A DNA stretch of 64,000 nucleotides from an uncultured Gemmatimonadaceae bacterium (GCA_963781585.1 CAWAGQ010000007.1:224001-288000); one strand, 5' to 3'. Positions 49,034-54,067 are shown, counted from the stretch's first letter. The notes: generated by a model from the sequence alone, not told the origin. Translations and numbers: made by a program.

Positions 49034-49384
49034 GATGGGAACGACCCCGGACGAACCACGTCGCCGCGCTCTGTGGTGCATGGGTCAACCGACACCGGGT
49101 GTCAGAAGGACGAGTTTGGCGCGGCAGAAGTACTCCATGGCGGAGTCTGGCAGGCAAAAGGTCCGTAAACGCGCGTGCCGGGGCAAGCGAAACGGCTGGC
49201 CTGTGAGGCCTGAGGCGCCCCTTGCGGCCGTGGAATCCGCGGTGTGATCGCCGTCACCACCTGTGCCACCGACGCGCAGGGACCGGTGTACGTCATGGCG
49301 TCCGAGGCCGCGCGGTGTCTGCTTGAAGGGGCATCCTCCGCCCGGTAGCATTCTAAAGAGGGGGCAATGGGGGAGCAGCGTTCG

Positions 49385-51040
49385 ATGAAGACATTTCGAA
49401 CAGGAGTGAACGGCGGGGTTGCGGCGCTTGCCTGCCTCGCGATGGCGCTGGCCGGATGCCAGGACGCCACCGGAGACGCCGCGAAGGGAGTGGCGCGCGT
49501 GGAAGTGGCTCCTGCCGCCGTCTCGCTCGATGTCGGTGAGACCAGACAGCTGGAGGCCACCGCCTACGACGCCTCTGGCCAGCGGCTGGACGGGCGGCAG
49601 TTCACGTGGAGCACCACCGACGCATCGGTCGTGACGACCACGCCGGGCGGCCTTGTCAGCGCGGTGTCCCCAGGGACGGTGACCGTCACCGCGTCGACGG
49701 GGGGACGTAACGGGCAGGGGAGCGTGGTAGTGATGCCGACGGCGCCGGTGGGTCCGGTCATCGATGTGTGGCCGGCCGTCACGTATCAGACCATGACCGG
49801 CTGGGAGGCGAATGCCTATATCGGGCAGGGGGTCTGCAGCGCCCTGCCGTACTATCGTGACGAGGTGATCGATCGCGCGGTGAACGAGCTGGGGTTGAAC
49901 CGCGTGCGGCTGGAAGTCCCCAGCGGCGTGGAGAACCCGGACGACTGGTGGGCGCCGGTTGTCGACGGAACGAACACCCTCGATCTCGACCAGATACCGC
50001 GCTTCCAGATCGTCAACGACAACAATGATCCGTTCACCATCAATCCCGCCGGGTTTCATTTCACGTTCGTGGACTTCAAGGTCGACAACGTGGTGAACCC
50101 GATGCGCCAGAAGCTGGCGGCTCGCGGCGAACATCTGTTCGTGAATCTCACCTATGCCGGTGGCAAGACCGCATTCGTGCACTCCTCGAATCCGGAGGAG
50201 TATGCCGAGCTGCTGGTGTACACCTTTCAGCATCTGCAGACGAAATACGGGTGGGTGCCGGATGCCGTCGAAATGGTCCTGGAGCCCGACAACTCGACCA
50301 ACTGGACTCCGGACGCCATCGGCCGTGCGATGGTCGCAACCGGCGACCGACTCGCGGCGGCCGGCTTTCATCCGGCATTCATCGCTCCCTCCAACGTGGA
50401 CGCATCCGCGGCTTTGACCTATTTCGACGGCATCCGCCTGGTCCCCCGCGCGTCCGAGTACCTGACGGATCTGTCGTATCACCGGTACCGCGGGGTCTCT
50501 GCGGGCACGATTCAGGCGATTGCCGATCGGGCCGTCTCGGCCGGCGTGCGCTCCGAGATGCTCGAACACATCGGCAGTGGCTACCAGGATCTCCATCAGG
50601 ATCTCGAGCTCGGCAGAAACTCCGCGTGGGAGCAGTACTCGATCGCGGGGTGCGCCACCACCGATCTCGGGGGACTGTACTACGTGATCGACAAAACGGA
50701 CGTGACGCACCCGGTGGTGCACATCGGCTCGCGGAGCAAGTACCTGCGCCAGTACTTCCTGTTCATCCGGTATGGGGCGATCCGCCTGGGCGCGGTCAGC
50801 GGCGACGCCAGGTTCGATCCGCTCGCCTTCAGGAACACCGATGGCGGGTTCGTCGTGGTGGTGAAGGCGAGTGCCGGCGGGTCGTTCCAGGTGCACCAGC
50901 TCCCGGCCGGCAGGTACGGATTGAAATACACCACCGACGCCCAGTACGGGGTCGATCTGCCGGATGTCACGATCGCCGCCGGCGCACCGCTCGCGGCCTC
51001 GATTCCGACGGCCGGGGTCATCACGATCTATCATCGCTGA
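49385..51040 (+). CDS. Lipoprotein with Ig-like (Big_2) domain and putative clan GH-A (GH30-like) hydrolase domain
   Basis: Lipobox LAGC; FTWSTTDASV..GLVSAV; YQTMTGW, LEPDN, LSYHRY, EMLEH, LAFRNTDG. Confidence 0.65.
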   Translation: MKTFRTGVNGGVAALACLAMALAGCQDATGDAAKGVARVEVAPAAVSLDVGETRQLEATAYDASGQRLDGRQFTWSTTDASVVTTTPGGLVSAVSPGTVTVTASTGGRNGQGSVVVMPTAPVGPVIDVWPAVTYQTMTGWEANAYIGQGVCSALPYYRDEVIDRAVNELGLNRVRLEVPSGVENPDDWWAPVVDGTNTLDLDQIPRFQIVNDNNDPFTINPAGFHFTFVDFKVDNVVNPMRQKLAARGEHLFVNLTYAGGKTAFVHSSNPEEYAELLVYTFQHLQTKYGWVPDAVEMVLEPDNSTNWTPDAIGRAMVATGDRLAAAGFHPAFIAPSNVDASAALTYFDGIRLVPRASEYLTDLSYHRYRGVSAGTIQAIADRAVSAGVRSEMLEHIGSGYQDLHQDLELGRNSAWEQYSIAGCATTDLGGLYYVIDKTDVTHPVVHIGSRSKYLRQYFLFIRYGAIRLGAVSGDARFDPLAFRNTDGGFVVVVKASAGGSFQVHQLPAGRYGLKYTTDAQYGVDLPDVTIAAGAPLAASIPTAGVITIYHR

Positions 51041-51074
51041 TCCCTCGTCAGGCGCGGTGCGGGACAGGTGAGGC

Positions 51075-51110
51075 AGAAAAGAACAGGGCTCCGGTTTCCC
51101 GGAGCCCTGT
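51075..51110 (-). terminator. Intrinsic terminator after lipoprotein paralog A
   Basis: 12-bp stem ACAGGGCTCCGG/CCGGAGCCCTGT; U-tract on minus strand. Confidence 0.8.
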
Positions 51111-51137
51111 CGTCGTGCACCAGCGTGGTCGTTCAGA

Positions 51138-52049
51138 TCACTCCCCCCCGCAGTGCGGGAAACCCGTCAGCGTCCCTTCGTTAAAGTTGTCCAGCGACGT
51201 GATCAGGCCGCTCACGCCACCATTGCTCAGGTTGGTCGTGATCGCGGTGCCGCCGGCGATGAAGATGTGCGCGTTGGCGCTGTTGATGGCGGTTTGCACG
51301 GACGCTGGCCCCGATGTGCCGCCGTTCAGGATCGCGCTGATCAGCTGCTGCACGAGATTGAGCAGGTTGTTGCTGGAGAACGTGATGTTCCCCGGCTTGC
51401 CGGGCGTGGCGTTCAGGATCGCCTGCGCCTGCGCGCCAGTCAGGTTCGCGTTGCCGACGTGGATCGTGGTCGGGATGAGCGACGCCGTGTATGCCTGATG
51501 ATTCCGATAGTAGCCCTTCGTGAACGTGCAGCCGGTTGACGGGGGCGTGTACGTGTTTGTGAATGTCACCGTCGATCCGCCGTCGTTCCCGAACTTGCCG
51601 TCCGCCGGGTTCGCGTTGATGGTGCCCTGATTGCCGAGATACGTAACGCTCGTCAACGCCCAACCCGGCTGGGTGGTCTCGGTGATCGTGCCGGTGTATT
51701 TGTCGGTGCCGCTGGTGGGCGTTGTTGCGGCGAGCCGGCACGTGCCGACGTCGATGTTCAGGGAGGTCAGCGCTCCAGCAGGCACAGCAGGCCCGCCTCC
51801 TGGCCCGCGGTGCACGTAGGAAACGTCGAAGTGGAACGTCCCTGCGGCGTTCCCGCTCTTGCATATCCACAGCTCGCCTTCGACCGCCGCCTTGTTGGCG
51901 ATGTCGATCACGTCGCCGACTACAGAGGCCATTGGCTGGATGCTGCCGCGCAGGTTCACGGCGGGAGCGCTGGGTGAATCGGCGCAGGCAGCGAATGCTG
52001 CGAGAGCGCCGAGCGCCAGAGACGCGCGCATAACGCGATTACACAACAT
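51138..52049 (-). CDS. Surface lipoprotein paralog A (pilin/CnaB-like domain + CTxTxGYYRNH domain)
   Basis: GGAGGAAGG RBS; lipobox FAAC; LWICK..TITE..VTFTN; C-terminus nearly identical to paralog B. Confidence 0.75.
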   Translation of the reverse strand: MLCNRVMRASLALGALAAFAACADSPSAPAVNLRGSIQPMASVVGDVIDIANKAAVEGELWICKSGNAAGTFHFDVSYVHRGPGGGPAVPAGALTSLNIDVGTCRLAATTPTSGTDKYTGTITETTQPGWALTSVTYLGNQGTINANPADGKFGNDGGSTVTFTNTYTPPSTGCTFTKGYYRNHQAYTASLIPTTIHVGNANLTGAQAQAILNATPGKPGNITFSSNNLLNLVQQLISAILNGGTSGPASVQTAINSANAHIFIAGGTAITTNLSNGGVSGLITSLDNFNEGTLTGFPHCGGE

Positions 52050-52100
52050 GGTCCTTCCTCCGGAATGGGTAGCACTCGTACGCGACCTGGCTGGTCGATG

Positions 52101-52184
52101 CCCTTCTTCGGCAGCGGGACGATCTCGCCCGGAGACTCCGCGCTTTGCGCGCCGGCCTGGTGGCCGGGTAGCCATTTCGGAAGG
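52101..52184 (-). ncRNA. c-di-GMP-I (GEMM-I)-like riboswitch, copy A
   Basis: Minus strand CCUUCCGAAAU-GGC-UAC-CCGGCC-ACCA-GGCCGG-CGCGCAAAGC...GUCUC..GAGAU..CGCUGCCGAAGAAGG. Confidence 0.75.
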
Positions 52185-52447
52185 TGCTGAATGAGCTGGC
52201 ACTCGTAAGAGCAACTGACATGCCGTTCGAGCTGGTAGCGGTGCCTATCCCAGTGATGCGGAACGGCGTTGGTCGGCCGCTCATCCCAATCCGCGCAGGG
52301 CGCTTCGCGTGTCCCTTGTCGCCTGTTCGCCGCGGCGGTTGCAGCCACGGCGGGCGGTCGCCGTGCGGACATGGCCCAGCCTCAACGGTGATGGCGGTCA
52401 AATTACTTCGGAACCGGGCGAGTCATGACGGCTGTGCCCGGATGAGC

Positions 52448-52497
52448 GCAGGGAAAGAACAGGGGCCCGGTTTCCCGGGCCCCTGTTCCTTCCCTGC
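52448..52497 (-). terminator. Terminator hairpin after lipoprotein paralog B
   Basis: GAACAGGGGCCCGG-TTTC-CCGGGCCCCTGTTC with extended stem; homologous to the paralog A terminator. Confidence 0.75.
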
Positions 52498-52516
52498 GGT
52501 GCCGCCGCGCGGACGA

Positions 52517-53413
52517 TCAGTCGTCGCCGCAGTGCGGAAAGCCCGCGAATTTCCCGGAGTTGAAGTTGTCCAAGGCAGTGATCAGGCTGCTGATGCCGGT
52601 CTGGGTCAGGTTCGTCGTGATCGCCTTGCCGCCGCTGATGAAAATGTGTGCGTTGGCGGAGTTGATGGCAGTTTGCACGGACGCCGGCCCCGATGTGCCG
52701 CCGTTCAGGATCGCGCTGATCAACTGCTGCACGAGGTTGAGCAGGTCATTGCTGCTGAACGTGATGCCACCGGGCTTGCCGGGTGTGGCGTTCAGGATCG
52801 CCTGTGCCTGCGCAGCAGTGAGGCTCGCGTTGCCGACGAGAATCGTGGTCGGGATGAGCGCGGCGGTAGCCGTAGCATGATTCCGGTAATAGCCCTTCGT
52901 GAAGGTGCAGCTGCTAGCCGGTGGGGTGTAGGTATTGGTGAACGTCACGATGCTGCCGCCATCGTTACCGAATCGAACAGCCGAAGCGGTTGCCGCGTTT
53001 TTGTCGACCGTTCCCGGTTCGCTAGTGCTTGTGGCGACGACGATATCCGTCAGCCCCCAACCCTGTGGAGGCGTCTGCTCAGTGATCGTGGCGTGGAAGA
53101 CGTCGCTCCCATTGACATCGGTACTGGCCACCAGATTGCACTCGCCGCTGTTCACATGCACAGTCGTCGGGCCGGAGACCACTCCGTTCTCGTCTGTGAT
53201 GGTGAGGCTGAAGTCGAACTGCACACCGTTCGCCCCGTTGACCGCAACTTTGCACACGGTTAGTTCACCGTCTTTAGGGGCGGTGGCGGACAATCCGCCA
53301 GACCTGAGGGAGGCGGCCGTACTGCGCGCGGCAGTGGGTGGTTCGGCGCAGGCAGCGAGTGCCACCACTGCGCCGAATGCGAGAAACGTGTGTAGCCCGC
53401 TCTTGGTCAACAT
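52517..53413 (-). CDS. Surface lipoprotein paralog B
   Basis: GGAGGAAG RBS; lipobox LAAC; LTVCK..TITE..VTFTN; CTFTKGYYRNH..GFPHCG. Confidence 0.75.
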   Translation of the reverse strand: MLTKSGLHTFLAFGAVVALAACAEPPTAARSTAASLRSGGLSATAPKDGELTVCKVAVNGANGVQFDFSLTITDENGVVSGPTTVHVNSGECNLVASTDVNGSDVFHATITEQTPPQGWGLTDIVVATSTSEPGTVDKNAATASAVRFGNDGGSIVTFTNTYTPPASSCTFTKGYYRNHATATAALIPTTILVGNASLTAAQAQAILNATPGKPGGITFSSNDLLNLVQQLISAILNGGTSGPASVQTAINSANAHIFISGGKAITTNLTQTGISSLITALDNFNSGKFAGFPHCGDD

Positions 53414-53467
53414 GTGCGTCTTCCTCCGATGTATGTGGGCACTCGCCACCCAACCAGCCTGGTCGGG

Positions 53468-53553
53468 CCCCTCTTCGGCAGCGGGACGGTCTCACCCGGA
53501 GATTCCACGCTTTGCGCACCGACCTCGCGGCCGGCTGGCCTTTCTCGGAAGGG
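53468..53553 (-). ncRNA. c-di-GMP-I (GEMM-I)-like riboswitch, copy B
   Basis: Minus strand CCCUUCCGAGAAA-GGC-CAG-CCGGCC-GCGA-GGUCGG-UGCGCAAAGC...UCUC..GAGA..CGCUGCCGAAGAGGGG. Confidence 0.8.
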
Positions 53554-54067
53554 AAGAATCGATTCGCTATTGCGACAACAGCACGCATGCGCTCGCTATG
53601 AGCGCGGCGGAAGTTAGCGTACACTAATCTGAATTGCAATCTGCAAGTCCAAGCACCCCAAATACTTCGGAACCGCGACGACTGACCAGGCTGCTTCGAT
53701 GGGGCGCGTCTGGCGGCTTGTCCTGCGGTCTCACCGCTCGCAGTGAGGTGGTTTGTCGCGGCGATTGCCGCGGCCACGCAACGCCGATCAGGGCCTCTCA
53801 GTCAGTCGCGAGATCGCAGGGATCCCCTCCGTGAGATCGCGACCGCGGTGCCGTCAGGCGGGCTGGTCCGGCGCGCCGTTAGGCCGGTCGGTCACGGCGC
53901 CGTCAGGCCGGTCTGTCCGCCGCGCCACCGGGTCGGGTCGCCCGGCTCCCTCGGCGGTGGTCAGCGCCTCTGGAAGGGGCCAGTTTCGCGCGGCAGTATT
54001 CCACCATCCGCGCGATGATGCCGATGGCGCTCTTGTGGCCGGATTCCCGCCGCGGCTGCCCGCTGCG

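Follow-up and report, generated by a model that had tools for sequence, protein, structure and literature searches.

Control of bacterial surface proteins by riboswitches for cyclic di-GMP (c-di-GMP) is an established regulatory principle. In Bacillus thuringiensis, the gene for a collagen adhesion protein is preceded by a c-di-GMP-I ON switch (Bc2-cap), which acts by transcription anti-termination in a Gram-positive host and controls a wall-anchored protein (PMC4933901). The adhesins CD2831 and CD3246 of Clostridioides difficile and the Vc1-gbpA system of Vibrio are likewise controlled by c-di-GMP riboswitches, but the C. difficile switches are of class II and their proteins are anchored by sortase (PMC6366702). 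We have analysed a comparable arrangement in a 64-kb stretch of DNA (hereafter the window) from an uncultured Gemmatimonadaceae bacterium (GCA_963781585.1 CAWAGQ010000007.1:224001-288000), in which two tandem cassettes, A and B, each combine a c-di-GMP-I leader, a lipoprotein gene and a terminator. Bc2-cap is the closest known system, since here too a c-di-GMP-I switch, predicted to be of the ON type, precedes the gene for an adhesin-like surface protein. Unlike Bc2-cap, the leaders have no terminator, control is predicted to be translational, the protein has a lipid anchor, the host is diderm and there are two copies. The likeness to the C. difficile and Vibrio systems is regulatory and does not come from sequence comparison.

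The explanation that we favour, and consider fairly probable as a whole, is that these are two separately transcribed, duplicated cassettes in which c-di-GMP-I ON switches and diverged promoters control surface lipoproteins built as a stalk with a tip. Such regulation is of an ordinary kind; the tail domain of the proteins is uncharacterised. In a literature search we found no paper titled on these riboswitches in Gemmatimonadota, although subscription journals and Rfam-wide supplements may list such leaders, and the locus lends itself well to testing cyclic-dinucleotide control in a phylum that is abundant and has been little studied.

Duplicated cassettes and their aptamers

All parts of both cassettes lie on the minus strand, and coordinates are positions in the window. 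Gene A (52517..53413) encodes a lipoprotein of 298 amino acids and gene B (51138..52049) a paralogue of 303 amino acids with a CnaB-like domain and an A-type C-terminal domain. The proteins are 62% identical over 255 amino acids, reaching 81% in the C-terminal 138 amino acids and 42% in the middle domain. The leader, the signal-peptide region, the coding parts and the terminator recur with a start-to-start spacing of 1364-1379 nucleotides (nt; repeat families D1-D4 and D8). An earlier reading, made from the sequence alone, had proposed two paralogous lipoprotein genes, each with its leader, ribosome-binding site and terminator, and had ascribed them to duplication of the whole expression unit. 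The identity and the recurring spacing confirm the first proposal, and the recurrence of leader, coding parts and terminator upholds the second.

Gene A is followed by a terminator hairpin (52447..52498; inverted repeat I1, 24 base pairs, -54.8 kcal/mol, z -12.6) whose U-rich 3' arm belongs to the extended stem. The intrinsic terminator after gene B (51068..51111; hairpin 51078-51110 plus a U-run, z -6.3) lies between convergent genes, and this type of hairpin occurs only twice in the whole genome. A 16-nt element (repeat D18) stands upstream of cassette A (53660..53675) and again upstream of cassette B (52401..52416); its 13-nt core has just two copies genome-wide. As counterparts are found upstream of both cassettes in a genome of the same genus (G001; the genome of the window is G000), the duplicated unit started upstream of the leader. 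The element is likely to lie near the duplication boundary and is possibly a regulator site. G001 carries the same tandem, and thus the duplication is older than the split of the two species.

Copy A of the leader (aptamer at 53474..53550) belongs to RF01051: in the covariance-model check it scored 45.2 bits against a gathering cut-off of 35, the sole Rfam match at gathering in the window. Copy B (52106..52182) matches below gathering and is conserved in G001; a custom model also supports it, with B itself in the training set. It is absent from the RF01051 matches at gathering in the window and from the three in the genome, but its G001 orthologue passes RF01051 at 38.3 bits. Against the c-di-GMP-I-GGC variant of the same clan (RF03167, gathering 59) the copies reach 46.3 and 42.7 bits, the latter being the match of leader B in E-value mode (E 7e-8), and neither is placed in that variant. 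Both keep A47 where the RF03167 model has G, which we take to be the meaning of 'GGC' in its name.

Read against the Rfam alignment, the contact positions are G20=53540, A47=53513, C92=53478, C44=53516 and G83=53487 in aptamer A, and G20=52173, A47=52146, C92=52111, C44=52149 and G83=52120 in aptamer B. The earlier claim of G, A and C at the equivalents of G20, A47 and C92 in Vc2 of Vibrio cholerae (c-di-GMP-I, RF01051) is therefore borne out in both copies. We aligned 28 hand-picked short aptamers, some from the window and the others from relatives: 87% of cells are paired and two-sided changes occur at 13 of 23 pairs, a level reached by none of 500 shuffles, although relatedness of the sequences inflates such counts; the inter-helix pair C44-G83 is kept in 26 of the 28. 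Folded alone, the aptamers are no more stable than shuffles (z 0.02 and -1.1), so the evidence lies in the covariance model and covariation and not in energy. The Rfam score of A, the E-value of B and this covariation sustain the assignment to c-di-GMP-I/GEMM-I, with the correction that the aptamer measures about 77 nt instead of the roughly 85 nt first given for the leader.

With Vc2 the copies share the two-helix fold, the contact bases, the C44-G83 pair, the position in the 5' leader and, in copy A, the GNRA loop (GCGA); they differ in a short P3 helix, a divergent P2 internal loop and, in copy B, the absence of a GNRA loop (ACCA; GCCA in G001 B). The short P3 and divergent P2 loop are common to a sub-group in Gemmatimonadales for which Rfam coverage is incomplete; copy B is one example, and the leaders in G009 and G047 are missed at E<=1. 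The two leaders had been called homologous, and this stands in that both are c-di-GMP-I, but they are not equivalent, B having no GNRA loop, a junction that is 1 nt shorter and a score below the cut-off. On these two failings, the GNRA feature and the cut-off, B seems to be a weakened or retuned aptamer, one that would nevertheless be expected to work like a member of RF01051.

The encoded lipoproteins

In both proteins the lipobox cysteine (Cys22; LAAC in A, FAAC in B) follows a basic N-region and a hydrophobic stretch, as judged by eye and by regular expression, and A and B are predicted to be membrane-anchored surface lipoproteins. In the AlphaFold model of A, a disordered N-terminus forming a flexible linker is followed by a beta-sandwich of CnaB/pilin fold at residues 48-164 (confidence score pLDDT mostly about 90; K55, E112 and N160) and a helical C-terminal domain at 165-298 (C169, C295). 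The sandwich aligns with the Mobiluncus adhesin 5u6f (Z 10.7, root-mean-square deviation 2.7, 104 residues aligned) and with Spy0128 (3b2m; Z 10.5, deviation 3.0, 108 aligned), and has a CnaB-type Foldseek match at E 1e-4. In the Spy0128 alignment (model 49-164, chain 173-307), the range ends, which are all that this comparison uses, bring K55 to K179 and N160 to N303, the isopeptide pair of that pilin (PMC13183583). E112 is the candidate catalytic glutamate from conservation, and the modelled CnaB domain probably holds a Lys-Asn isopeptide bond.

The domain thus resembles those of Gram-positive pilins (Spy0128, PitB and the Mobiluncus adhesin) in its fold (Z 10-10.7) and in its candidate Lys, Glu and Asn residues at matching domain ends. 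Unlike in those pilins, it is a single domain on a lipoprotein, and no sortase motif or pilus operon was seen. Both C-termini read FPHCG-x-x with no membrane tail, which sets the proteins apart from sortase-assembled pilins; no sortase was found among eight scanned neighbours, with no genome-wide sortase search made. Mfa5 of Porphyromonas gingivalis, described as the first Gram-negative surface protein in which such an isopeptide bond was seen, is a precedent, although its bond is in a CnaA-like domain and the one predicted here is in CnaB (PMC7835359).

The tail domain (165-298) is modelled with a pLDDT of 95.6, and C169, T172, G174, N178 and Q230 are invariant. A structure search of it gave no clear PDB match (best Z 5.4) and no Foldseek match at E<=0.001, and an Atlas search returned unnamed clusters only (best 0.91). 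Confidently modelled, with neither a family model nor a clear PDB match, it is a good target for structure determination. A two-domain profile matches 3650 representatives at E<=0.001. In distant relatives the profile region is joined to SdrD_B, SpaA_4, HYR, DUF11 and DUF7507 stalk repeats, and 9 of 26 scanned homologues reach the Pfam cut-off for such a repeat.

The label 'adhesin-like' given from the sequence gains support from the predicted CnaB/pilin fold, and fold and architecture together suggest a role in adhesion. We envisage a short stalk formed by the isopeptide-locked CnaB domain and, at its end, a helical tip domain closed by a disulfide, which would bind a surface, the matrix or a partner; the protein would belong to a sessile-lifestyle regulon. 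Two observations weigh against this picture. In the 65 homologues compared, some of them Actinomycetota proteins whose middle domain is a different one, K55 and E112 each occur in only 40 and N160 in only 46, and neither A nor B reaches the cut-off of any Pfam or NCBIfam family. The proteins might instead be periplasmic or envelope-structural lipoproteins, or the C-terminal domain might be an enzyme or assembly module, a minority view that we nevertheless take seriously. The stalk repeats of distant relatives are typical of surface-displayed proteins and isopeptide locking fits proteins that bear force, both of which speak against such a role, whereas the lack of a clear structural match for the tail, its conserved polar residues (K173, N178, Q230, N237, N285 and H294) and the secreted enzymes elsewhere in the regulon (S8 peptidase, GH39, alginate lyase and beta-helix proteins) would suit it.

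The same tail domain is also found in soil Actinomycetota (L038-L040, L042, L044-L046, L049 and L050) on Sec-type secreted proteins, where a poly-proline linker precedes it; those proteins have neither lipobox nor riboswitch.

Divergence, switching and ligand

Upstream of aptamer A we read a putative sigma70-type promoter (53611..53639; TTGCAA, 17 nt, TAACTT), with hexamers and spacing identical in G001, and upstream of aptamer B a putative sigma54 promoter (52210..52225; -24/-12, GG-N10-GC) in which all eight scored flanking positions match and which is also identical in G001; the genome encodes RpoN (one match). Both sites were read against the sigma70 and sigma54 consensus sequences. A consensus scan did not flag the site of cassette A, and it counts against our explanation that the promoter calls are consensus readings only. 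Of all the lipoprotein leaders that were scored, 64 in number, 22 have a GG-N10-GC site of the sigma54 type, where base shuffles would give 3.9. The two promoters seem to have diverged, being sigma70-like in A and sigma54-like in B. After the duplication, A would have kept its sigma70-type promoter and canonical aptamer, and B, with its aptamer weakened, would have passed to sigma54 control; the two might thus answer different combinations of signals. An inverted repeat (TTGCA-N3-TGCAA, 53634-53647) overlaps the predicted -35 element of cassette A, is kept in G001 and is a possible operator.

It is also conceivable, but in our view unlikely, that A is the working c-di-GMP switch and that the aptamer of B is decaying, with B controlled mainly by sigma54. 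The lack of a GNRA loop bears on this, because the tetraloop/receptor is one of the two long-range contacts of the fold (PMC11705072), and so do the shorter junction, the sub-threshold Rfam scores and a folding cost that is highest in B; yet G20, A47, C92, C44-G83 and all helices of B are kept in both species, with about six differences in 80 nt, the pairing that would block its ribosome-binding site is kept too, and the alignment is lost upstream of the sigma54 site, in contrast to the kept aptamer. The locus offers a natural pair, a canonical and a GNRA-less aptamer with the same anti-Shine-Dalgarno logic, in which the retuning of riboswitches after duplication can be tested directly.

No terminator was found between aptamer and start codon in either leader, and the aptamers end about 60 nt upstream of the start, which points to translational control. 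The Shine-Dalgarno (SD) site GGAGG of gene A (53423..53427) is predicted to pair with the 5' strand of the P1 helix when ligand is absent, and the SD region of gene B (GGAGGAAGG, 52053..52061) is complementary to its P1 5' strand, CCUUCC. When leaders cut at the predicted starts were folded, free or with the aptamer forced, the SD paired with the P1 5' strand in the free state with a probability of 0.98 (A) and 0.84 (B). Forcing the aptamer raised its unpaired probability in A from 0.02 to 0.50 and in B from 0.12 to 0.61, an opening that ranks third of 49 downstream windows in A and first of 46 in B. With the anti-SD randomised, the free SD opens to just 0.22 and 0.33. Both G001 orthologues and the G027 leader show the same ON pattern. 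Without c-di-GMP, the pyrimidine-rich P1 5' strand would pair with the SD site and block translation; with c-di-GMP bound, P1 would close and the SD be freed, so that the proteins would be made at high c-di-GMP.

Several results tell against this mechanism. The ON pattern is missing from three of eight cassette-type leaders (those of the paralogue on contig C4 and of G047 are unchanged; that of the G001 C5 paralogue is reversed, from 0.31 to 0.05), and the anti-SD is absent in three further leaders. In the window copies the anti-SD duplex is not significant against shuffles (p 0.48 for A, 0.10 for B), and any forced structure tends to free other bases. Moreover, the modelled cost of forming the aptamer is 9.0 (A) and 12.5 (B) kcal/mol, and the binding energy reported for Vc2 is roughly -9 kcal/mol (PMC11705072); as the cost is at or above that energy, switching would need to be kinetic or to draw on tertiary contacts outside the model. 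In 12 other leaders of lipoprotein genes with G20, SD opening rose by at least 0.1 in seven and was flat in five, with a clear fall in none, in a forced-aptamer test that is biased towards rises. Taken together, the folding makes a translational ON switch the probable direction, though well short of certain. That the aptamers bind c-di-GMP but act as OFF switches, or through mRNA stability or Rho instead of SD release, appears distinctly improbable: the OFF-wise fold of the G001 C5 paralogue, the two unchanged cassette-type leaders and the five flat ones among the other 12 would accommodate it, but the ON pattern is present in all four tandem-cassette leaders of the two species and none of the 12 shows a clear fall.

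As for the ligand, c-di-GMP is contacted by G20 and C92, and A20 is the mark of binders of cGAMP (3',3'-cyclic GMP-AMP) (PMC6140456). The C44-G83 pair is required for binding, which G83C abolishes, and the GNRA tetraloop/receptor is the other of the two long-range contacts (PMC11705072). Both copies have G20, A47, C92 and C44-G83, and c-di-GMP is therefore the likely ligand of both aptamers. Here A47 is presumed to be a ligand contact. The genome has 14 GGDEF and 6 EAL matches, and thus encodes enzymes of c-di-GMP metabolism. GEMM-Ib cGAMP riboswitches, as in the Geobacter GacA system, use the same RNA scaffold, and a Hypr-signature GGDEF is present in this genome too, but both window copies have G20, not A20 (PMC6140456, PMC6456294). 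Either cGAMP as physiological ligand or promiscuous switching is very improbable: a single GGDEF carrying Ser in the Hypr position, A20 variants common in relatives and the departure of the P2 internal loop from the Rfam consensus are outweighed by G20 in both copies, by wild-type Vc2 (G20), which binds c-di-GMP at pM but cGAMP only at 10 uM (PMC6140456), and by A20 copies in relatives that mostly precede other types of gene.

The GGDEF in question (G000:C4:1035677-1036126, minus strand), one of the 14, has a membrane domain and Ser for Asp at the Hypr position; its spacing (N+9, D-26) is that of N339/S348/D374 in GacA, and it is a candidate 3',3'-cGAMP synthase. A20 variants of GEMM-I are common in relatives (L030, L032, L157, L159, L160, L168, L169 and several of L198-L219; also L025, L028, L029 and L031). 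Short A20 copies often have STAS proteins downstream; in family f2, Big_2 lipoproteins are preceded by a second A20 type, which has G at position 48. A bolder and quite tentative proposal is that Gemmatimonadales run two parallel circuits on one scaffold, with G20 copies turning on surface lipoproteins in response to c-di-GMP and A20 copies by STAS anti-anti-sigma genes responding to cGAMP from a Hypr-type GGDEF. In that case the tandem pair would give a tuned output in two steps, with sigma70 serving the canonical aptamer and sigma54 the weakened one, and would display a stalk locked by an isopeptide bond whose tip has an undescribed fold shared with soil Actinomycetota.

Occurrence in related genomes and other leader motifs

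The genome of the window is 93.5% complete with 7.2% contamination. The nearest homologues are from Gemmatimonadaceae, and the named homologue loci come from Gemmatimonadaceae, Gemmatimonadales and metagenome-assembled genomes of Actinomycetota. Each of the two further aptamers in the genome lies before a lipoprotein gene, one for a third paralogue and one for a Big_2 repeat protein. RF01051 is found in 45 of 61 related genomes, often before lipoproteins, and in none of 14 controls, and a short-variant model matches in 116 of 151 genomes of the family; these tallies include the unpublished G008, G035 and G460, none of which is the sole support of any claim. The arrangement is thus common in the order and not a rare system, which qualifies the 'uncharacterised' switched surface system proposed from the sequence alone.

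Of 26 downstream proteins chosen by hand, 12 have Big_2 domains at the threshold used, three are STAS proteins, and secreted enzymes account for several. A set of 27 short aptamers was tabulated, 10 of which had served in training. Every G20 copy for which an open reading frame was called (12 in all) precedes a lipobox protein by a permissive regular expression; four further G20 copies had no frame called and one row was unparsed. Ten copies have A20, with a frame called for five and a lipoprotein for one.

Within the gene family itself, 10 matches covering both domains were found among the 61 relatives. In eight of these the aptamer lies within about 130 nt of the start (two each in G000 and G001; G009, G023, G027 and G047), in G004 it lies about 390 nt upstream, and one has none. 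A fixed partnership of riboswitch and gene family can be rejected: in 93 homologue loci from a scan for the C-terminal motif, with 67 distinct leaders of at least 120 nt, nothing exceeded 14.4 bits with the custom model, and Rfam found no riboswitch in the 20 of them that it was run on. Five of the host genomes of these loci have RF01051 elsewhere. The suggested survey of homologues for upstream GEMM motifs was hence positive near the start in close relatives but negative in the motif-scan loci, and the riboswitch is a lineage-limited control layer on the gene family. In a tree of 66 rows, which leaves out several aptamer-bearing ones, including G001 A, G009 and G023, the aptamer-bearing rows fall unresolved at the base, so that the order of riboswitch gain or loss cannot be set.

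The third paralogue (L001:1638-2507, on G000:C4), also present in G001, has the same riboswitch and CnaB domain with a swapped, distantly similar tail; profile comparison of the tails gave a weak match (probability 19%).

Three other motifs were considered in leaders of homologues. 'Motif Z' was rejected as a c-di-GMP-II-like leader, as it has no Rfam match and its conserved part is the GG-N10-GC site of the sigma54 type. In 14 leaders belonging to divergent homologues (L036, L058-L061, L063, L065, L067, L068 and L072-L074), the riboswitch slot, about 60-90 nt upstream of the start codon, is taken by 'motif X', an imperfect palindrome of 29 nt that hardly varies; genome G416 has two copies, both before members of the gene family. 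As a structured RNA it was rejected, with two-sided change in none of 10 predicted pairs, presence in none of 401 genomes and no Rfam match in the loci scanned; it is an operator or an unknown RNA element. 'Motif Y', seen in five homologue leaders (L093, L107, L115 and two genes of L124), has two stems and a 9-nt bulge that is conserved, with two-sided change at 5 of 27 pairs. It was rejected as a widespread RNA: its 19-nt pattern occurs in 12 of 401 genomes, eight times as the same coding frame (FFHGGSR), and the rest of the motif in none.

Beside the cassettes, the convergent neighbour of gene B (49367-51040, plus strand) encodes a lipoprotein with a Big_2 domain and shares its terminator region; its catalytic-looking core is unassigned, with a NEP-like motif absent from the Pfam matches. 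Finally, a genome of family f2 carries RF01051 aptamers in triple tandem at about 157-nt spacing at two places (G039:C3:4761-5163 and G039:C36:1983-2385).

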